Part shown: positions 665 through 35,052 of the stretch, piece by piece
Position numbering within the stretch: position 1 is the stretch's first letter
Layout of the letters: each line of letters starts with the position of its first letter
Source of the DNA: a virus
Lineage: Duplodnaviria > Heunggongvirae > Uroviricota > Caudoviricetes
IMG/VR virus record: IMGVR_UViG_2541047680_000009
Location: 1 to 37,464 of that record
Length of the DNA stretch: 37,464 bases
Strand: one strand, 5' to 3'
The notes under the pieces: generated by a model
Told to the model about the DNA's origin: nothing
What the model saw: only the letters and a program-made list of their open reading frames with translations
Database searches by the model: none
Made by a program: the position numbers and the translations under genes

Positions 665-1684
665 TCAGCAGCTTTCACGTAAACATAAACAGGGCTCAAT
701 GAATATCTGATTGCTCCAGTTACCTTCTTTAATTCGTTCCAGCAAAACATTTCCTGCTTCCAGACCAATTTTCCTGTGAGGAACGGCCATTGTTGTTAAT
801 GATGGTTGGCAAACTTTGCTGACGTCACTGTCACCAAATCCTACTACGGCGAGCTCGTCTGGAACTTTGATCCGTCTTCGTTGACATTCATAGAGAACAC
901 CGCAGGCTAACTCATCTGACACACATACCAGGGCATCCAGTTCCGGCCATGCGAGCAAAAATTCCGGTAGTTGTGATGCTCCGGTGGAAAAAACAGGTGG
1001 CAGAGCAGCGTTAATAACACGGTTGGGAGACATATGATGGCGTAACATAGCTTTATACCATCCCTGTAAATGCTGCTGAAAGATCCACTGTTCCTGGTTA
1101 GCGCATAGCAAACCGATATTCTGATAACCACGTTGTACCAGCATATCCGTCAGCTCGAACATTGCTGCAACATTATCAATACCAATGTTGATATCTATCG
1201 GATCAGTACGAATGGCACCGATTTCTATAACAGGAATCGAGGCATTTTTGAGCAAGTGACGCACGGTACTATTATGCTCAACACTAAGCAAAATTGCTGC
1301 AGCGATATTAGAAGCCAGCAGGGTTTCCAGCAGTTTTTCTTCTTGTTCCAGACGATGGCGTGACTCAGCCAGGATTATTTGATACCCCGCTGGTTGTAGC
1401 ACATGTTGCAGCCCGGCAAACATTTCCGTGCATCCCGCTTCAGCCAGGTTTGGCACGACCATTGCGATCGTGTGTGAAGATGCCGATGCCAGTGCGCTTG
1501 CAGTGAGGTTGGGCATATACCCTAATTCATTAACTGCGGCTTCAATCTTCTCCCTCAATTTATCTGAAACTTGTTCGGGAGTGCGTAACGCTCTGGATAC
1601 AGTCATTGTGCCAACTCCCGCGAGTTGCGCGACATCAGCAATAGTGACTTTACCTGTACTACGACGTTTTCGGGTTATTGCCAT
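665..1684 (-). CDS. LacI-family transcriptional repressor (GntR/IdnR-like sugar-acid regulator type)
   Basis: 339-aa ORF; N-terminal HTH VTIADVAQLAGVGTMTVSRALR typical of LacI/GalR family, followed by a periplasmic-binding-protein-like sugar-binding core; AGGA RBS 6-7 nt upstream of the ATG at 1684; divergent from the PTS operon. Confidence 0.9.
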   Translation of the reverse strand: MAITRKRRSTGKVTIADVAQLAGVGTMTVSRALRTPEQVSDKLREKIEAAVNELGYMPNLTASALASASSHTIAMVVPNLAEAGCTEMFAGLQHVLQPAGYQIILAESRHRLEQEEKLLETLLASNIAAAILLSVEHNSTVRHLLKNASIPVIEIGAIRTDPIDINIGIDNVAAMFELTDMLVQRGYQNIGLLCANQEQWIFQQHLQGWYKAMLRHHMSPNRVINAALPPVFSTGASQLPEFLLAWPELDALVCVSDELACGVLYECQRRRIKVPDELAVVGFGDSDVSKVCQPSLTTMAVPHRKIGLEAGNVLLERIKEGNWSNQIFIEPCLCLRESC

Positions 1685-4147: not shown

Positions 4148-4974
4148 ATGTTAAAGAATTGACTCAATTTGCACGGGATATACGTATCCAGACGCTTAAA
4201 TCATTAACTCATCTCGGCTTCGGTCATTATGGTGGCAGCATGTCGGTTGTGGAAACGCTGGCAGTGCTTTATGGCGCTGTAATGAAAATTGATCCTGCTG
4301 CTCCCGACTGGCCTGAGCGTGACTATTTTATCCTGTCCAAAGGACATGCCGGACCTGCTCTCTACAGTACTCTGGCGCTGAAAGGCTACTTTCCACTGGA
4401 AGAATTAAGCACCTTAAATCAGAACGGAACCCGCTTACCAAGTCATCCGGATCGGCTAAAAACGTGTGGTGTTGATAGCACCACAGGATCGCTGGGGCAG
4501 GGGATATCCATTGCCGGAGGGATGGCGCTGTCGCATAAACTGGCGGGGCGCAAGAATCGGGTTTTTTGTATTGTCGGCGATGGCGAACTTAATGAAGGCC
4601 AATGTTGGGAAGCTTTCCAGTTTATCGCGCATCATCGTTTGAATAACCTCACTGTGTTTGTGGACTGGAACAAACAGCAGCTTGATGGTCAACTGGATGA
4701 AATTATTAATCCATTTGATTTGGAAGGAAAATTCCGGGCTTTCGGTTTTGATGTCGTGACAGTGAAGGGCGATGATATTGAGGGCTTGTTGAATGTAGTT
4801 AAACCTGTCCTGCCAGCTGAGGCCAGACCGAGAGTGGTCATTCTCGATAGCATTAAAGGGCAGGGGGTGCCGTGTCTCGAGCAACTCAGTAATTCTCATC
4901 ACTTACGCCTCACAGAAGAGATGAAGGGGACGCTAAACGAAACAATTCGCCAACTGGAGGCTATGCATGATTAA
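4144..4974 (+). CDS. Transketolase, N-terminal (TPP-binding) subunit
   Basis: 276 aa; motifs SKGHAGPALY and GSLGQGIS...GDGELNEGQCWEA typical of the thiamine-diphosphate binding half of split transketolases; translationally coupled to flanking genes. Confidence 0.9.
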   Translation: MNVKELTQFARDIRIQTLKSLTHLGFGHYGGSMSVVETLAVLYGAVMKIDPAAPDWPERDYFILSKGHAGPALYSTLALKGYFPLEELSTLNQNGTRLPSHPDRLKTCGVDSTTGSLGQGISIAGGMALSHKLAGRKNRVFCIVGDGELNEGQCWEAFQFIAHHRLNNLTVFVDWNKQQLDGQLDEIINPFDLEGKFRAFGFDVVTVKGDDIEGLLNVVKPVLPAEARPRVVILDSIKGQGVPCLEQLSNSHHLRLTEEMKGTLNETIRQLEAMHD

Positions 4975-5920
4975 TCTCGCACCGGCAGGACAAAAAGACA
5001 GCATTGAAATGCGCAAAGTTTATGCAGATTTTATCGCGCAACAGAGTAAAAACGTCAGTTCTGTCATTGCTCTTGAGGCTGATTTAATGAGTTCCATGGC
5101 AATGGACAGCGTGGCGCAGGATTATCCAGATCACGTCATTAATTGCGGCATTATGGAAGCCAATGTTATCGGCACAGCTGCAGGGCTGGCCTTAACCGGG
5201 CGCAAGCCATTCGTGCATACCTTTACCGCATTTGCCAGTCGTCGCTGTTTTGATCAACTCTTTATGTCGCTTGATTACCAGGGCGCTAACGTCAAAGTTA
5301 TAGCTTCTGATGCGGGTGTTGCTGCTTGCCACAATGGCGGAACACATATGTCATTTGAAGATATGGGAATTGTGCGCGGGCTGGCGCATTCGGTGGTGAT
5401 GGAGATGACAGATGCCGTAATGTTCAGCGATATCTTGCGTCAACTCGTTGCACTGGAAGGATTTTATTGGATTCGTACCATTCGGAAGCAAGCAGCGAGT
5501 ATTTACGCACCAGGTACAACCTTTACAATTGGCAAAGGGCAGGTATTACGTGAAGGTACGGATGTCACCTTAATTGCTAATGGCATTATGGTGGTGGAAG
5601 CCCTGGAGGCCGCACGTCAACTTGAGCTGGCTGGGGTAAGTGTAGCGGTGATTGATATGTTTACGCTCAAACCCGTTGATCGGATGTTAATTAAAAATTA
5701 TGCCGAAAAAACAGGACGGATCGTAACATGTGAAAACCATAGTATTCATAATGGATTAGGTTCAGCGGTTGCTGAAGTGCTTGTAGAAACTTGTCCTGTG
5801 CCCATGCGTCGGGTGGGGGTTAAAGAGCGGTATGGCCAGGTTGGAACTCAGGACTTTTTACAGAGAGAGTACGGGTTAACCGCGCAAGATATTGTGGCGG
5901 CAGCCAGAGAGCTATTGTAA
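4967..5920 (+). CDS. Transketolase, C-terminal (pyrimidine-binding) subunit
   Basis: 317 aa; transketolase pyrimidine-binding and C-terminal domain organisation; start overlaps the N-terminal subunit gene by 8 nt. Confidence 0.9.
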   Translation: MINLAPAGQKDSIEMRKVYADFIAQQSKNVSSVIALEADLMSSMAMDSVAQDYPDHVINCGIMEANVIGTAAGLALTGRKPFVHTFTAFASRRCFDQLFMSLDYQGANVKVIASDAGVAACHNGGTHMSFEDMGIVRGLAHSVVMEMTDAVMFSDILRQLVALEGFYWIRTIRKQAASIYAPGTTFTIGKGQVLREGTDVTLIANGIMVVEALEAARQLELAGVSVAVIDMFTLKPVDRMLIKNYAEKTGRIVTCENHSIHNGLGSAVAEVLVETCPVPMRRVGVKERYGQVGTQDFLQREYGLTAQDIVAAARELL

Positions 5921-6658: not shown

Positions 6659-7146
6659 TTTACGAAATTCGTAACAAGAGGCTTTTCTACGGATCACGTG
6701 GTGCGTGCCACGTGAAATTTTTGTAGCGCAAAATGTGTGATGTGTAAATACAAGGAAGGAAAAAAGTTAAATCGGTGGAAGTCCATACCTGCCACATGTA
6801 CGTCTGCATTCCTCGTTTTGAACAGAATTCTCACCAGACATCGTGAATTTCTCATTCAATCATCAGAGATATTACCCAGGATTTTTATTGTTTTGTGATA
6901 TCAGCAGTGCAGGTATACAGACGTTAAAGTAATCAGGTTTATTATAACCACCTTTACAAAGTTGTATATGTTTATAATTTAATGATTTTAATGCCAGTCG
7001 TTTTCTGCTGCTTAAATTGAGGTCGCATATTATACACAATAATATTCCTGGCATTATTAAATTAATAAGAGAGGATTCTTATCACTGTATTTTTGCTCCG
7101 CACTACCGTTCTGGCTGGTGAAGTAATAATACAGGAGAATAACAGA

Positions 7147-8241
7147 ATGCTTAAAAGACGTGATGCTTTTTTAAAGAAAAGCGCGCTGGCAGTGAGTGTG
7201 GCCCTGCTGCTCTCATCTCAGGCTTTGGCTCATAAAACAATTACTGATTCAACGGCGGGTATTATCTGGATTGATAATGGCACTCAGTCACTTGAAAGTG
7301 CAAGTGTGATTGACAGAAATGGAAATGCTAACGGTGATGGTAGTGTTACTGGAAAAAACTTTGCTGTTGGTTCCGATGCAATAATTTGGGATGCGGATAA
7401 ATCCATGGCAACAGGAAATAAGACAGCTGTTTTTAATGCAGACAACAGTGTCGCTCTGGGGTATGGCTCTCAGGTGAATGGAGAAAGCAATGTACTTTCT
7501 GTAGGGGCCGGTCCTTCAGGATATGGATTTTCAGTTGATGGTGCACCGGAAACCCGCCGGATTATAAATGTTTCAGATGGTGTTAAGGATAGTGATGCGG
7601 CCACAAAAGGACAGATGGACAACGCCATTGCAGGTGCTGTACGGGTGTCGGGGGATGCCCTGCGCGGTGAGATAGGAGCTGTCTACCGTGATGCTGTTTC
7701 TCATACTGACAGTCAGGTCACAGCAGTACGTGATGAACTGAAGGCAGAGGGAGACAGTCTGCGCGGTGAGATAGGCGGTGTATACAGAGATGCCCGTGCT
7801 CATACTGACAGTCAGGTTACAGCAGTACGTGATGAACTCAGCAGGGATATTATTGCAGTCACATCGGCAGCGGTGGCGCAGACGGATGCAGCAATAGCCT
7901 CAAATACAGCAGCGATAAGGAATAACAGTCATCGTCTGGATTTGACGGAAGCCTGGCAGAAGATGGCGACAGAGAGAATGAATAATATGCAGGAGCAGAT
8001 TAAAGAGAACCGGAAGGAGTTAAGGGAGAGTGCAGCCCAGAGCGCGGCACTGGCCGGTCTTTTCCAGCCATACAGTGTTGGAAAATTTAACGCGACAGCA
8101 GCCGTTGGTGGTTACCGTGATGAGCAGGCCATTGCGGTGGGCGTGGGCTACCGTTTCAGAGAGAATGTGGCAGGAAAAGTTGCAGTTGCTGCAGGTGGGT
8201 CATCCGCATCGTGGAATGCTGGTGTGAATTTTGAGTTCTGA
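7147..8241 (+). CDS. Trimeric autotransporter adhesin, YadA/Eib-like (signal peptide, coiled-coil stalk, C-terminal beta-barrel anchor)
   Basis: AGGAG RBS 8 nt upstream of the ATG at 7147; signal peptide [28 protein letters not shown]; central heptad-rich repeats; C-terminal anchor ending ...AVGVGYRF...GVNFEF as in YadA-family translocator domains. AT-rich upstream region. Confidence 0.8.
7651..7848 (+). repeat. In-frame tandem duplication, 2 x 99 bp (33-aa coiled-coil unit) inside the adhesin gene
   Basis: Copy 1 at 7651-7749 and copy 2 at 7750-7848 are roughly 80% identical; they encode [33 protein letters not shown] and [33 protein letters not shown]. Confidence 0.85.
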
Positions 8242-8264
8242 CAGGTCAGGATTTAGATATCTGT

Positions 8265-8283
8265 CCCGGGGGGAGTCCCCCGG
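8265..8283 (+). terminator. GC-rich perfect palindrome just after the adhesin stop (possible terminator or protein-binding site)
   Basis: CCCGGGGGAgTCCCCCGGG, 24 nt downstream of the adhesin stop codon; no strong T-tract, so terminator function is uncertain. Confidence 0.35.
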
Positions 8284-8302
8284 GATATAATGAGGTACAG
8301 AG

Positions 8303-8758
8303 ATGCTGGATATAATCCTGGCGACGAGAGATATTTATTTTGAAAAAGCCCTGCGAGAGGTATTTGGAACCGTAAGCAGTCGAATCAGATATATAGAAGA
8401 TGCCATATCAGACAGAAGAAGGGTGCAGTCAGGCAGGTCATTCAGATATTATTTTGTATTCTGTGATGATGAGTATACAGATATTGTTCGTATTCTTTTT
8501 ACCGGAGAGGCCTGCTGTATTCTGAATAAGTCGATGCTGAATCTGAGAGCGGCCGGAGGTGTGTTGACGCTGGAAGAGCGCAGAGCGGTACTGAACCGGT
8601 ATTACAGAGGTTTAAGTATTGCGGAGATTACAGAAGAGACGGGGCAGAATGACAAGACGGTATACGGTCATCTTCGTCGTGCACTGCAGCGGTCTGGATT
8701 CCGGAAGGGGCGTTTTATAAAGGGGAGAGAAGTGACGGGGGATTCAGGTGTTGAATAA
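8303..8758 (+). CDS. Small LuxR/GerE-type HTH transcriptional regulator
   Basis: 151 aa; C-terminal LTLEERRAVLNRYYRGLSIAEITEETGQNDKTVYGHLRRALQR fits the LuxR-type HTH pattern (LT.RE..VL......G.S..EIA.....S..TV..H); GAGG RBS 8 nt upstream. Confidence 0.6.
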   Translation: MLDIILATRDIYFEKALREVFGTVSSRIRYIEDAISDRRRVQSGRSFRYYFVFCDDEYTDIVRILFTGEACCILNKSMLNLRAAGGVLTLEERRAVLNRYYRGLSIAEITEETGQNDKTVYGHLRRALQRSGFRKGRFIKGREVTGDSGVE

Positions 8759-9114
8759 TGTATCTTATATTGTGATATCGGTGCTGCTGCTGTTATTTTT
8801 TGTTGTATTTGTGACGAATGGTTAAGAATAAAACATGAGTTGGTGATTATCAGGACAGGTTGCTTGTATATGAAGATAACAAAGGCGGCATTTATTTTTG
8901 CGCTGTCAGTGTGGAGTGTTGCTGTGATATGTCTTTTATTATTTGTACTGATTGTTCTGGGATAGCCATAGTGAAATAAAAAGCTGTCTGAATTAAATTA
9001 TTTTGCACACATGTTTTAATTCTGCACTGAATTCAGAATGGGTAATCAGTGACCGTCCTGACGGTCACTTTAAAGAAAAGGCATTTACACAGAATTACTG
9101 ACAGGCTCTGGCTG

Positions 9115-9453
9115 TCATTCGGCCGATGAACAGTTGCTTAAGACAGGATTATCATTCCCTTCCACCAGATTGGCTTTTTTACCTTTTGTGTACAGTTTAT
9201 ATGAGTATCTTTTATTGATGGCTTCGTAATTGGCTCCGGAGGCCATTTTCATTAGCTGCATAGGTATCATCTCATCCATCTGATTAATCACTGCATATGA
9301 GTTCCCAGCAGTGGTGTTGATATAGACCACCTCCATTGTCTTATTTCCATTACAGACATAAGCTGTTTTTGAGATTTCTTTTGTGGCAGCGGAGGATACC
9401 ATACTGTTGCTAACAAGAATGAGTGCAAGGACGGGAGAAGAGTATTTTTTCAT
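9115..9453 (-). CDS. MliC/PliC-family inhibitor of C-type lysozyme (secreted)
   Basis: 112 aa with N-terminal signal peptide; conserved MliC-like pattern Y.C...........V.Y.......A....................SGA.Y.......Y.....KG..A............C (YVCNGNK...VVYINT...MASGANYEA...YTKGKKANL...SNC); AAGGAG RBS 7 nt upstream. Confidence 0.6.
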   Translation of the reverse strand: MKKYSSPVLALILVSNSMVSSAATKEISKTAYVCNGNKTMEVVYINTTAGNSYAVINQMDEMIPMQLMKMASGANYEAINKRYSYKLYTKGKKANLVEGNDNPVLSNCSSAE

Positions 9454-9958
9454 AATAACTCCTTCTGTAGGTTAAAAAAACAGGTGTTTGATCAGAATTA
9501 TATTAATAATTCATTCATCAGAAAAAAAGGTTTTTGTTATAGCAATAATAATGAGCACAATTGCTTGTGAAACTGGTGCCATTTTACGGTTGCTTAGTGA
9601 TCAGACATGAGATAAATGAAGGGGGATCCGTGAGATAAATAACGAATTGGAGTGGGTTAACATGGGTTCTGGTGAACAGAACTGAAATTCTTTTCCGCTA
9701 TACGATAGATAAGTCGGGCATTGAAATCATCCTTCCTGGCAACTTAGAATCGAGTTTGCTGAAACATGACCCGCAACAAAAAGGATGATTCCAATGACTA
9801 CTCAAAACAATAAGCATGATAGCCTGGATTACTCAGAAAAGCCCAAAAGCAAGCACATCGTGACGTTCGAGCGCGATTCCGGTAGAAAAGGAGAATCGTC
9901 TTCCTCTGCCAATAAAACCACTATGCCGGCAGCCCCTGCCCCAGGGAAAAAATAAACA

Positions 9959-10591
9959 TCATTCATCGTTCGTTGCACGAACGCGCCTGATCTCCACTCT
10001 GGCAATCTGATCTGCTGGAATATAGGTTGCCAGAGCTCCCCAGTACTTATCAACCACGCCTTTATACTCTTCCCATTCGTTACTGCCTGAAGGGCTGCTG
10101 TGCGTGACGTAAAGAACCATATCGCCTTTATTCCCCAGGGTAAACGGACCGTTAGGCCACTCTTCAAAGTTCCCTGGCAGCCGTGACATCATACCGGAAC
10201 CATCGCGAAGAATCACTCTGACCTCGGTAACGCTGAAGCCTGTTTGATCAAACATTGCCTGCCATGCTGAGCTGGTATCGTCAGACCATGAAATATCATT
10301 ATTCCACAGTAATCTGTACATCCATTTGCGACCGTACCTGCGCCACCACGCACCGCATGTAACGGCACACAGAAGTGCTGGTGGTGTTGCCAGCCAGGCA
10401 TTCAGACCTGCCCACATAACAGCCTGGTAAGCCATCATTGCTGTCAGGCCAAAAATCAGCGAAGAAAAAGTCACCTCAATGGGCTTGTGGTGATCCTTCA
10501 GTCCCACATTCGCAATAAAATACCCAATATAGCCACTGGTCAGGGTCACCAGTGTTGCCCATGGCAGATTTAACAACGAAACGTCAAACAT
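9959..10591 (-). CDS. Membrane protein of unknown function (about 3 N-terminal TM helices plus about 120-aa soluble C-terminal domain)
   Basis: GGAGA RBS 5 nt upstream of the ATG at 10591 (MFDVSLLNLPWATLV...); sits immediately downstream of the mor terminator, so likely a separate transcription unit at the extreme end of the early arm. Confidence 0.55.
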   Translation of the reverse strand: MFDVSLLNLPWATLVTLTSGYIGYFIANVGLKDHHKPIEVTFSSLIFGLTAMMAYQAVMWAGLNAWLATPPALLCAVTCGAWWRRYGRKWMYRLLWNNDISWSDDTSSAWQAMFDQTGFSVTEVRVILRDGSGMMSRLPGNFEEWPNGPFTLGNKGDMVLYVTHSSPSGSNEWEEYKGVVDKYWGALATYIPADQIARVEIRRVRATNDE

Positions 10592-10630
10592 ATTTTCTCC
10601 CTGCATCCTGAATACTAAAGAGAGAGCATA

Positions 10631-10660
10631 AAAAAAGCACGGTAAGGGGTCTACCGTGCT
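10631..10660 (-). terminator. Rho-independent terminator downstream of mor
   Basis: Perfect 9-bp stem AGCACGGTA/TACCGTGCT (10636-10660), 7-nt loop, followed on the minus strand by TTTTT. Confidence 0.7.
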
Positions 10661-10705
10661 TTTATACAATAAGGAGATTTTTGAAAGGACTTTAACAAGC
10701 AGGAA

Positions 10706-11104
10706 TTATCTGGATTTGTTAACGTCTTTCGTCTCCTCTGGCAGATCTTCATCAAACAACCTGCCCTGCATCCGATCCAGTTCTTCTTTTCTGACCCGCT
10801 TAACCACGCTGTAGACCCACTGAAGCGAAACACCAAACTTGCGGGCCAGTTCGTGGTGGTTGCGTCCGTTAAACTCCCTGAAGATTTCCCGGTCGCGCTG
10901 ACTGACCTTCCATACCATGCCCATCGGGAAATAAACGTTTTGCCCGCCCCAGACCTGCATCATTCGGTTCGCGACGGCCTGACCAATCTGGTCGGCAATT
11001 GCGGGCTCAATATCAATAATCTCGCGAACGGTCTCAGAGGTATGCTGTGCCAGCTCCACCAGGAGTTCCGGCCCTTTACTTCGAAACTGATTCAGGTCGC
11101 TCAT
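10706..11104 (-). CDS. mor: Mor-family transcriptional activator (Mu middle operon regulator)
   Basis: 132 aa; C-terminal FREFNGRNHHELARKFGVSLQWVYSVVKRVRKEE matches the Mor/C-family HTH region (Mu Mor: WNDFNGRNVSELTTRYGVTFNTVYKAIRRMRR). Confidence 0.85.
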   Translation of the reverse strand: MSDLNQFRSKGPELLVELAQHTSETVREIIDIEPAIADQIGQAVANRMMQVWGGQNVYFPMGMVWKVSQRDREIFREFNGRNHHELARKFGVSLQWVYSVVKRVRKEELDRMQGRLFDEDLPEETKDVNKSR

Positions 11105-11528
11105 GTTTGACTCCCGCAGCTCTGCGCTGCCACTTCTTCAGTTTCTCAATAACACTGCTTGCCTGTTCAGTACTGAGCCAGCGCAGGGCGCTGATGCCCG
11201 TTTCCCGCTTGATCCACCGCGCTAATGCATTTTCTGAACGGTCACGAACAATGCCGGCAGCAGCCATTTCAAGCCATAGCGCACGGATTTTCCTGGACTG
11301 CGGATGGTTATCCAGCGGTAAACCGGAGCTGGCTTTTCCGGCAGGCTTAACGCGAAAGCCTTTCCTTTTCATGGATTCCAGCACGCAGTTTAGTTGTGTG
11401 GTATCCATTCCTTTGGTTGAGGCTTTACCGGTCAGCCCCTGTAACATCTGGCGGTAGGTGTCTTCATCCATACCCAGTTCATTACGGGCAATATGAATGA
11501 GCTGGATAAGACGTTGTTTAGTCATCAT
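11076..11528 (-). CDS. gemA: GemA-family protein (Mu gp16-like)
   Basis: AAGGAG RBS 6 nt upstream of the ATG at 11528; MMTKQRLIQLIHIARNELGMDEDTYRQMLQ...AGKASS... resembles the GemA (DUF1018) family; sits directly upstream of mor as in Mu. Confidence 0.75.
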   Translation of the reverse strand: MMTKQRLIQLIHIARNELGMDEDTYRQMLQGLTGKASTKGMDTTQLNCVLESMKRKGFRVKPAGKASSGLPLDNHPQSRKIRALWLEMAAAGIVRDRSENALARWIKRETGISALRWLSTEQASSVIEKLKKWQRRAAGVKHERPESVSK

Positions 11529-19280: not shown

Positions 19281-19313
19281 ACCGGAAAGCATTGTGCTTT
19301 CCGGTTTTGTTTC
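19281..19313 (+). terminator. Rho-independent terminator after the repressor gene (shared with the convergent Dam gene)
   Basis: 10-bp stem ACCGGAAAGC/GCTTTCCGGT with 5-nt loop followed by TTTTGTTTC. Confidence 0.65.
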
Positions 19314-20076
19314 AGAAGTTGCAGATTACCAGTTCACGGCGCGGCGTAGATTTCCCCGCCAGACTGTAGTTGATGTTCACTGTCTGTATGTTCAGTCCAG
19401 TGAACACCTCGCGCATCTGTGGGATATCGTTCACCGAAATTATCATTTTTCCTCTGATGCACCGGGCCAGCTCTGCCAGCCGCGAGTAGTTCCCTTCAGG
19501 AAAATCCACACCATAGCCTTCCGTACCCAGGTACGGTGGGTCGCAGTAGAACAGTGTGTGCGGACGATCATAACGCTCAATGCACTGTTGCCAGTCCATG
19601 TGTTCTATGACTGTTCTGGAAAGCCGCAGGTGTGCTGCTGACAGTTCTTCTTCAATACGCAGCAGGTTGAAGCGTGGCGGGGATGTGGTGGAGGTACCGA
19701 AGCTGTGCTCTGCCACCTTGCCGCCAAACGCCTGCTTCTGAAGGTAGTAGAACCGTGCCGCACGCTGGATATCCGTCAGTGTTTCTTCCGGGGTGATCTG
19801 CAGCCATTTGTAGATCTGACGGCTGACCAGCGCCCATTTGAACTGGCGGACAAATTCTTCCAGGTGATGCTTTACCACCCGGTACAGATTCACCAGTTCA
19901 CCGTTGATATCATTGATGACTTCGATCTTGCCGGGTGTCTTAAGAAAATAGAGCGCTGCTGCCCCACAAAACGGCTCCACATAACATTCATGCGCCGGAA
20001 ACAGCGGCAGGATGTGTTTTGCCAGGCGACGTTTGCCACCAATCCATGGAACGATGGGTAATGTCTTCATTTTCAT
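19312..20076 (-). CDS. DNA adenine methyltransferase, Dam family (D12 class N6-MTase), orphan
   Basis: Motifs WIGGKRRL (N-terminal), EPFCGAAA (AdoMet binding) and DPPY (catalytic) in the order typical of Dam; no adjacent restriction endonuclease. Alternative start at 20070. Confidence 0.85.
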   Translation of the reverse strand: MKMKTLPIVPWIGGKRRLAKHILPLFPAHECYVEPFCGAAALYFLKTPGKIEVINDINGELVNLYRVVKHHLEEFVRQFKWALVSRQIYKWLQITPEETLTDIQRAARFYYLQKQAFGGKVAEHSFGTSTTSPPRFNLLRIEEELSAAHLRLSRTVIEHMDWQQCIERYDRPHTLFYCDPPYLGTEGYGVDFPEGNYSRLAELARCIRGKMIISVNDIPQMREVFTGLNIQTVNINYSLAGKSTPRRELVICNF

Positions 20077-21605: not shown

Positions 21606-21709
21606 ATCGTATTCTCCTCTGTGAATAATTCATCGTTTATCCTGCACATCCCGTATCCCCGGCTCTCTTAACGCGCTTTAAAATCCTTCGCGCCCTGTAT
21701 TTGTGATGC

Positions 21710-21732
21710 TGTCTCCACCAGACAAGGAGACA
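21710..21732 (+). promoter_or_regulatory. Hairpin sequestering the Shine-Dalgarno of the first late (holin) gene
   Basis: TGTCTCC (21710-21716) pairs perfectly with GGAGACA (21726-21732), loop 9 nt; the GGAG of the RBS is inside the 3' stem, 4 nt upstream of the ATG at 21736. Confidence 0.4.
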
Positions 21733-28924: not shown

Positions 28925-29138
28925 GTTTTCTCTCTTCAGGCGGGTGATTTATCATTGCCAGCGAATGAGGGGCTGTATTACCTTTATAAAGGCTTTACAG
29001 CCTCTGTTTTATAACCGCCTCCGGTTCACCGCATTGCTTTCCCTGTCCTTCTCCCCTGATGTTTTCTAAAGCAGATTAAAATCGCCGGGCCTGCATTTCT
29101 CACAAACTGTCTCCGACAACATAACGCGGGACAGCAAA

Positions 29139-34955: not shown

Positions 34956-35052
34956 CATCACAGGGGCTCCGGCCCCTTCTTCTTAATCTCCTTTAATATC
35001 CGTCACGCGCTTCTCCCGACATACTGCCCTGAACTTACACAGGAGCACAATC

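Follow-up and report, generated by a model that had tools for sequence, protein, structure and literature searches.

The genes considered here are best introduced through two described systems. In Bacillus, SpoIISA is a toxin with three transmembrane (TM) segments, arranged with the N terminus outside and the C terminus inside the cell (N-out/C-in), and a cytoplasmic domain; it has been discussed as holin-like, and its antitoxin SpoIISB, a basic and natively disordered protein of 56 amino acids (aa), wraps the cytoplasmic domain of SpoIISA (PMC3057836). In phage Mu, the sequence runs from the activator gene mor to the promoter Pm, E18, E19, gp20 and, ~790 bp further on, C; the Mor site of Pm spans -51 to -36 in a numbering anchored on the published bases -57 to -52, GTAAAC (PMC4390567). 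Here we analyse a stretch of 37,464 nucleotides (nt) from a virus of the Caudoviricetes (IMG/VR record IMGVR_UViG_2541047680_000009, positions 1 to 37,464; hereafter the window). Comparison with related prophages identifies the segment at ~9638-10745 as an optional, mobile two-gene moron of a BcepMu-like transposable prophage, with mor on one side and the left prophage end on the other. It carries a gene for a 210-aa membrane protein, a small convergent open reading frame (ORF), and a terminator that separates the membrane protein gene from mor (Table 1). We tentatively regard a cassette of a membrane effector and a small antidote or regulator, switched by Mor, as the best explanation of these features.

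The window has a BcepMu-type layout, with an early arm on the minus strand (transposase, B, gam, gemA and mor), an immunity region at ~18.2-19.2 kb, and plus-strand late genes that extend to the window end. In many E. coli genomes with unrelated flanks (flgA, yeiB, clbG, yodD and others), homology to the window begins at 9597-9598 (TGATCAGACATGAGATAAATG...). The sequence at 9598-9637 shares 82% identity over 40 nt with the termini of two sibling prophages that lack the cassette (L064 and L065), and sibling prophages start with the homologous TGATTAGACTTGAGATAAATG. Since homology across differing host flanks begins at 9598 and matches the Mu-type ends of the siblings, these alignments place the left end of the prophage at 9598 and the 210-aa ORF inside it, 361 nt from the end. 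The original prediction had likewise assigned the ORF to the prophage; the end does not map between 9959 and 10630, and a reading of the ORF as host DNA past the prophage end was rejected.

The cassette is polymorphic among collinear related phages. The segment of this prophage type that contains mor and gemA is present in 640 of 5426 complete E. coli genomes, whereas the segment 9700-10640 is present in only 118-133, so that ~2% of these genomes carry the cassette. In the cassette-less siblings that were inspected (L064, L065 and phage PhiKM), no gene follows mor, which ends ~160 nt before the Mu end. Homology of the siblings to the window covers 9598-9637 only and resumes from 10746 onward, with breakpoints at 9637 and 10746. 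Judged from these breakpoints, the cassette measures ~1.1 kb (9638-10745), of which the final 13 codons of mor are part. On the mor side, homology breaks off 40 nt short of the 3' end of the gene (10706-10745, minus strand), and the last ~13 residues of Mor therefore differ between cassette-bearing and cassette-less prophages. The segment also has signals of its own, namely a terminator with covariation and a conserved sigma-70-like promoter of the small gene, along with a putative promoter of the large one. The gene thus sits where it had been predicted, at the extreme end of the early arm beyond the mor terminator, as accessory, insulated and terminal cargo. KP12 and PhiKM were considered as carriers of alternative cargo at this site and rejected: the KP12 ORF resembles a 182-aa late-region protein of the window, judged by eye, and in PhiKM (L002, PQ738613) a Mu-type end (…CTCAAGTCTAATCA) is internal at ~1900-2300, and the unrelated DNA behind it, with the annotation 'Fe2+ ABC transporter permease protein 2', is most likely host flank and not a phage gene.

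Homologues of the membrane protein recur in varied phage backgrounds. Copies of at least 55% identity, found in Escherichia, Salmonella, Klebsiella, Citrobacter, Serratia and Symbiopectobacterium, stand after mor, where a Mu-like early arm gives way to host genes, except for one in a P2-like phage (L038). Copies at 30-59% identity occupy other phage or mobile backgrounds, including alphaproteobacterial and non-Mu phages, where the gene lies after an Ogr/Delta late-activator gene (P2-like), adjacent to an Amidase_2 gene (L046) or to serine recombinases, upstream of TerL, in the vicinity of a portal gene, or after a D12 methyltransferase gene at a prophage edge. Because of this recurrence we interpret the pattern of neighbours as that of a mobile accessory cassette. 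All copies with identifiable neighbours are in phage or mobile contexts, and among them no copy in a prophage-free host genome was seen, so the gene does not behave as a conserved host membrane protein. In the P2-like exception (4656-5627, with matches to TerL and to the GPA replication protein), the homologue begins 21 nt behind the Ogr/Delta zinc-finger late-activator gene and has neither a terminator nor a small partner ORF; it is a second case of the gene standing right behind a phage late activator.

The 210-aa ORF is a real gene for an uncharacterised inner-membrane protein, since its homologues are numerous and nearly all full-length (~200-215 aa). A word-indexed search recovered 75 homologues at E<=1e-3, and an exhaustive search recovered 505 clusters at 50% identity. 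The protein matches phrog_12870, a family of unknown function, over its full length (E 6.4e-134, profile 1-210 of 210; query residues 2-211, as the submitted query had one extra N-terminal residue), and an identical protein is found on at least 1000 public contigs. Residues H36, S102, D105, W111, D158, Y162, T164, Q196 and R203 are among the invariant positions, and the most conserved parts by column identity are TM1 (0.89), loop 1 (0.82) and the last beta strands (0.80), with TM1 and loop 1 at the top. A 236-aa version that starts at TTG (to 10669) is not credible because an ORF of that length passes through the terminator. The presence of the gene in only part of the prophage family would fit a hitch-hiking ORF without current function. 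Full-length conservation from Enterobacterales to Alphaproteobacteria, with 24 positions invariant among 36 sequences down to 37% identity, and the conservation of the partner gene, its promoter and the terminator make this highly improbable.

Database searches gave little functional information. The 210-aa protein has no informative match in Pfam, NCBIfam or PADLOC, and in Pfam none at E<=0.1, DUF6338 (PF19865) included. On the other hand, 20 of 36 relatives match DUF6338 weakly, and those scanned individually score 21-28 bits, around the gathering cut-off of 26.5 bits, with one above it. The lengths are similar (the profile has 205 positions), and the relatives match only the central region, from TM2/TM3 to the start of the beta domain. 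We know of no function for DUF6338 itself. Searches of the literature on DUF6338 and on BcepMu-like E. coli prophages turned up nothing about the 210-aa gene. A PDB sequence search with the family profile returned no match, and an Rfam scan of 9400-11200 returned nothing above chance. The sole match of a tblastn search against 50,697 phage records was a distant one at a record end, in Synechococcus phage Ssp-JY41 (29% identity).

Hydropathy places hydrophobic segments of the protein at residues ~11-28, 38-60 and 66-84. An AlphaFold2 model built with 36 homologues (mean predicted local distance difference test score 83.8, predicted template modelling score 0.49) has helices at 12-29, 38-61 and 66-98 and, after them, a beta domain at residues 120-206. 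Lysine and arginine residues number zero at the N terminus, two in loop 1 and zero in loop 2, and several come directly after TM3 (three in the counted stretch); this distribution predicts an N-out/C-in orientation with a cytoplasmic C-terminal domain. The protein is thus predicted to have three TM helices and a small cytoplasmic beta-barrel, and structure comparison of the model gave Sm/LSm proteins as the best, weakly resembling, fold matches of the C-domain. The sequence, the hydropathy and charge analysis, and the model confirm the earlier reading, made from the letters alone, of an ORF with its own ribosome-binding site, three TM helices at the N terminus and a soluble C-terminal domain.

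This architecture bears on two other explanations. Three TM helices followed by an Sm-like beta domain, in an N-out/C-in arrangement, resemble the order of parts in MscS, and Sm folds typically form hexameric or heptameric rings. The protein might accordingly be a ring-forming channel, or another moron product of host physiology, that changes the flux of ions or solutes in the lysogen and takes no part in phage competition. Against this, the 210-aa protein matches neither the Pfam MS_channel profile nor the fold of the MscS family, the gene has no evident lysogenic promoter, and it is found only in phage or mobile contexts and with a small partner; we consider this explanation very unlikely. 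An accessory lysis function would make the protein a class-I-holin-like protein or lysis-timing regulator of the middle or late phase, with the small protein modulating its triggering. Lambda S105 has the three TM helices and the N-out/C-in topology (PMC3057836) that are predicted here, weak BFVD Foldseek matches of the TM part are nearly all holins, the L046 homologue adjoins its Amidase_2 gene, and the Mor-box-like motif described below would imply lytic-phase expression. However, these matches to holins lack significance (E 0.01-0.6), and a bundle of three helices is a generic fold. A structured, conserved C-domain of ~120 aa replaces the short charged C-tail of class I holins, and its gene stands at the outer end of the early arm, not in a lysis cassette beside an endolysin gene. 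The phage apparently has a lysis region of its own at ~21.7-23.8 kb, as read from translations without a family-model check; about four in five sibling prophages lack the 210-aa gene, and most copies are not beside lysis genes. Taken together, this makes a lysis function distinctly unlikely.

The original prediction of a stand-alone gene did not hold, because a small convergent ORF is conserved beside the 210-aa gene. Its product has 56 aa, or 53 aa if it begins at 9794 as annotated in the public record, where it is labelled hypothetical; it is hydrophilic, contains the motif DYSEKPK and ends in PAAPAPGKK. An equivalent tail-to-tail ORF of 40-60 aa with a polyproline C-terminus was found in 26 of the 28 lineages with enough flanking sequence, including alphaproteobacterial and non-Mu phage copies (30-45% identical) and two profile-distant metagenomic members. 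Since the ORF is intergenic and not constrained by the other gene, its conservation is its own. The small proteins share a [DN]-Y-x-[EP]-x-[PT] motif, which is repeated in the alphaproteobacterial versions, and in most lineages the polyproline run is followed by basic residues (PPPSPKKK, PPPAPRKK, PAAPAPGKK). Their composition suggests that they are disordered. Small partners in alignment A2 (e.g. L054, L055, L043, L045 and L067) contain one to three [NS]-Y-x-P-x-[TS] motifs and a polyproline tail. Such motifs recall YLPRP and PxxP of insect proline-rich antimicrobial peptides and the class II SH3 ligands (PxxPx+), a likeness that may serve as a lead only. In one distant family member (L066, ~1112-1400, minus strand), the membrane-protein gene has two small ORFs in tandem downstream of it, both ending ...PKPKG, which look like a duplication of the partner gene.

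A sigma-70-like promoter directed inward precedes the small ORF. Copies from Salmonella (L004), Serratia (L050) and Klebsiella (L005), with a protein identity of only 55-65%, have the same hexamers and spacing. On account of this conserved promoter, the small gene is probably expressed constitutively. No intrinsic terminator lies between the small and the large gene, and the transcript of the small gene should therefore run antisense into the large one.

The terminator after mor has a stem of 12-13 bp with a GC-rich core of ~8-9 bp, a 5-nt loop and a run of seven T (folding z-score -3.2). It had been predicted as a strong terminator, which agrees with our analysis, with a 9-bp stem and five T, which does not. 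An A-run lies 5' of the stem, so that the terminator is partly bidirectional. In diverged relatives the distance from the T-run of the hairpin to the ATG is constant at 40-51 nt. Across eight diverged lineages, 5 of the 13 stem pairs have compensatory double changes, and 91% of cells are paired, versus 39-61% in slid controls. These compensatory substitutions and the fixed placement in relatives indicate that the terminator acts as an RNA structure.

Between this terminator and the ATG of the 210-aa gene, 38 nt are available, and no sigma-70-like promoter for the gene was found there. The gene had been thought to be its own transcription unit; the insulation by the terminator agrees with this idea, whereas an own promoter of the sigma-70 type does not appear. 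Instead, a Mor-box-like motif, TTAAAGTCCTTTCAA, lies just past the mor stop codon. We defined a Pm-type promoter as one that has a dyad-like box with its centre at about -43.5 and, 22 nt beyond the box, a -10 hexamer, but lacks a -35. By this definition TTAAAGTCCTTTCAA is followed after 22 nt by the hexamer CACGGT, with a predicted start at ~10646, in the loop of the terminator hairpin. In lineage L034 the same arrangement of box and 22 nt leads to TATTAT, and the cassette-less siblings have no Mor-type box after mor. Two other candidates for a -10 were rejected: TATTCT/TATGCT after the T-run is not universal (it is absent from L024) and has no box 22 nt upstream, and TATAAA just before the hairpin has the wrong spacing to the box, and a transcript from it would meet the terminator.

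The geometry of TTAAAGTCCTTTCAA is that of Mu Pm and of three late boxes in the window. The strict pattern YTAA-N6-TTMA..ATC occurs three times in the window against 0.12 expected, and each occurrence precedes a late operon. From each of these boxes 22 nt lead to an xAxxCT hexamer, and the predicted starts lie 20-24 nt before start codons with Shine-Dalgarno sequences. The box TTAAAGTCCTTTCAA fits only a looser core pattern, with four matches in the window where ~2.2 are expected. As the late boxes share the geometry of Mu Pm, the late genes of this phage may be under the direct control of one Mor-type activator, with no separate C. Queries with Mu Mor and with Mu C both match mor alone among the window proteins. 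Mu C had been named as the gene at the position now held by the membrane protein and as absent here; the window does have one Mor/C-family gene, but in Mu C does not directly follow mor. These observations suggest that the 210-aa gene may be activated by Mor rather than expressed in the lysogen. Since a Mor-box-like motif is present in place of a sigma-70 promoter, expression in the lytic cycle (middle phase) is at least as likely as lysogenic expression.

The cassette resembles the Mu middle operon in its position immediately after mor, in a dyad-like TAAAG...TTAA box directly past the mor stop, in a hairpin with a T-run at the promoter region that terminates early transcripts, and in that the first products after Pm include E19 and gp20, which are apparently small membrane proteins. 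In Mu (L003, 1160-1651), E19 (120 aa) and gp20 (39 aa) are strongly hydrophobic and membrane-like and take the same relative position as the 210-aa gene. No similarity of the 210-aa protein to E18, E19 or gp20 was found, and homology to them was rejected. The two loci differ in that no C gene follows the 210-aa gene, that the cassette is optional cargo whereas the Mu operon belongs to core regulation, that the box lies upstream of the hairpin here but overlaps it in Mu, and that the predicted -10 is weak here.

With respect to its products, the cassette is closer to SpoIISA/SpoIISB. Three N-terminal TM segments and a cytoplasmic domain are predicted for the 210-aa protein, the membrane part is better conserved than the cytoplasmic part in both systems, and an adjacent small hydrophilic partner, apparently disordered by its composition, accompanies the membrane protein. 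Unlike SpoIISA/SpoIISB, which form one operon on the Bacillus chromosome, the genes here are convergent and reside in temperate phages of Proteobacteria, and toxicity and its neutralisation are what we would expect of them. SpoIISA has no sequence similarity to the 210-aa protein. Its cytoplasmic domain is GAF-like, and the likeness is therefore one of analogy and not of homology to a protein with a small Sm-like beta-barrel.

We propose the following working model of the Mor-switched cassette. In the lysogen, the membrane protein would be off: the terminator would block read-through from the early operon, Mor would be absent, and transcription of the small gene would run antisense, while the small protein would be made constitutively. 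When Mor arrives, either in lytic development or from a related superinfecting phage, transcription would start inside the terminator hairpin. Because a start within the hairpin loop omits the 5' arm, the Mor-dependent transcript could read through, whereas early transcripts would terminate. The membrane protein would then make the inner membrane leak ions or act there in the manner of a holin, and so exclude or abort a competing phage or hasten the death of the cell, and the small protein would be an antidote or regulator that binds the cytoplasmic barrel.

Several observations weigh against this model. Convergent gene order is unusual for protein toxin-antitoxin pairs, and the cytoplasmic fold departs from that of SpoIISA. 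The small ORF is missing from two lineages (L033 and L038), which apparently tolerate the membrane protein alone. The predicted -10 of the window, CACGGT, is poor, and in three lineages (L004, L026 and L024) the predicted start lies where the hairpin begins, which would make the bypass of the terminator only partial; owing to these two features, Mor dependence is something that we infer. Public copies of the membrane protein are all annotated as hypothetical, and none of the PADLOC-DB v2.0.0 families matched either the 210-aa or the small protein at E<=1.

The position of the gene also suggests, as in the original prediction, a protein of superinfection exclusion or abortive infection. In this reading a single membrane protein would be expressed in the lysogen from its own promoter and would block DNA entry or kill infected cells, and the small ORF would be incidental. 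The phage membrane exclusion proteins T4 Imm, P22 SieA and HK97 gp15 are small inner-membrane proteins encoded in the accessory genome. The 210-aa protein has a predicted inner-membrane topology, its gene is terminal, optional and terminator-insulated cargo at a site typical of exclusion genes in temperate phages, and it recurs at module boundaries of unrelated phages. However, the stretch between terminator and ATG offers the Mor-box-like motif instead of a sigma-70-like promoter, and the sole good promoter of the cassette points the opposite way. Retention of the small ORF in nearly all lineages argues against its being incidental. PADLOC gave no match, and the 210-aa protein differs from S105, T4 Imm, P22 SieA and HK97 gp15 in having a small partner and an additional conserved cytoplasmic domain of ~120 aa, with no sequence match or significant fold match to any of them. 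An exclusion protein of this kind is therefore unlikely.

The Mor-switched cassette could also be one instance of something more general: a widely distributed, previously unrecognised, phage-borne two-component system in which a three-TM effector with an Sm/SH3-like cytoplasmic barrel is restrained by a convergent, constitutively expressed, proline-tailed, disordered peptide and fired by a phage late activator. The antisense transcript would possibly reinforce the restraint, and Mor, or Ogr in the P2-like copy, would fire the promoter embedded in the terminator. The pair would then represent a new type of module, for toxin and antidote or for abortive infection or exclusion, tied to the developmental timing of the phage. 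We put this generalisation forward as a possibility and hold it to be doubtful.

Other features of the window were recorded alongside the cassette. Between the immunity region and the late genes, a 254-aa ORF (19312-20076, minus strand) is 42% identical to an L055 protein that matches Pfam MethyltransfD12, and it probably encodes a phage-borne N6-adenine DNA methyltransferase. In L055 the D12 methyltransferase gene lies directly upstream of the homologue of the 210-aa protein. The host flank at 7093-9453 contains a 382-aa ORF with internal repeats, a 151-aa protein with a sigma-70 region 4/helix-turn-helix domain (8303-8758) and a protein resembling MliC-family lysozyme inhibitors (9115-9453; Pfam E 4e-12). 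A 2.4-kb query that included the host flank 8800-9597 had 106 matches on E. coli plasmids, against none for the cassette alone and one for mor and gemA, and phage phi456 has an 83% match to a portion of the flank, 9416-9593. Because the plasmid matches need the host flank and phi456 matches part of it, some of the sequence just outside the prophage end is repeated or mobile.

Table 1. Features of the cassette, its surroundings and the putative late promoters in the window
Feature	Position	Strand	Remarks
Left end of the Mu-type transposable prophage	9598..9637		Begins TG; holds two copies of GAGATAAAT
Sigma-70-like promoter	9721..9750	+	TTGAAA-18 nt-TAGAAT; 10/12 match; reads inward, toward the small ORF
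Small convergent ORF, 56 aa	9785..9955	+	phrog_15726, E 1e-41; stop 3 nt from the stop of the 210-aa gene
Gene for the 210-aa inner-membrane protein	9959..10591	-	ATG at 10591; stop codon ending at 9959; MFDVSLLN...ATNDE
Shine-Dalgarno sequence of the 210-aa ORF	10596..10601	-	GGGAGA; 4 nt before the ATG; read off the sequence
Intrinsic terminator between mor and the 210-aa ORF	10630..10663	-	Stem-loop 10663..10633
Mor-box-like motif	10681..10695	-	TTAAAGTCCTTTCAA; 10 nt past the mor stop codon; loose core match
mor	10706..11104	-	Pfam Mor, E 1e-43; sole Mor/C-family activator gene in the window
Putative Mor-dependent late promoter 1	21668..21710	+	Box TTAACGCGCTTTAAA, 22 nt, GATGCT; reference for box geometry
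Putative Mor-dependent late promoter 2	29066..29108	+	Box CTAAAGCAGATTAAA, 22 nt, CAAACT
Putative Mor-dependent late promoter 3	34983..35025	+	Box TTAATCTCCTTTAAT, 22 nt, CATACT

Neither gene of the cassette has a name or a known function, and their relatives span Enterobacterales to Alphaproteobacteria and several types of phage. If the cassette is inert, it remains an ordinary hypothetical moron. If it does combine a membrane toxin with an antidote under the control of a phage late activator, it would add a compact new module to the systems of prophage competition and defence and would give a first functional handle on DUF6338-like proteins. Its regulatory device would then be a promoter that starts inside a terminator and lets only activator-dependent transcripts pass.

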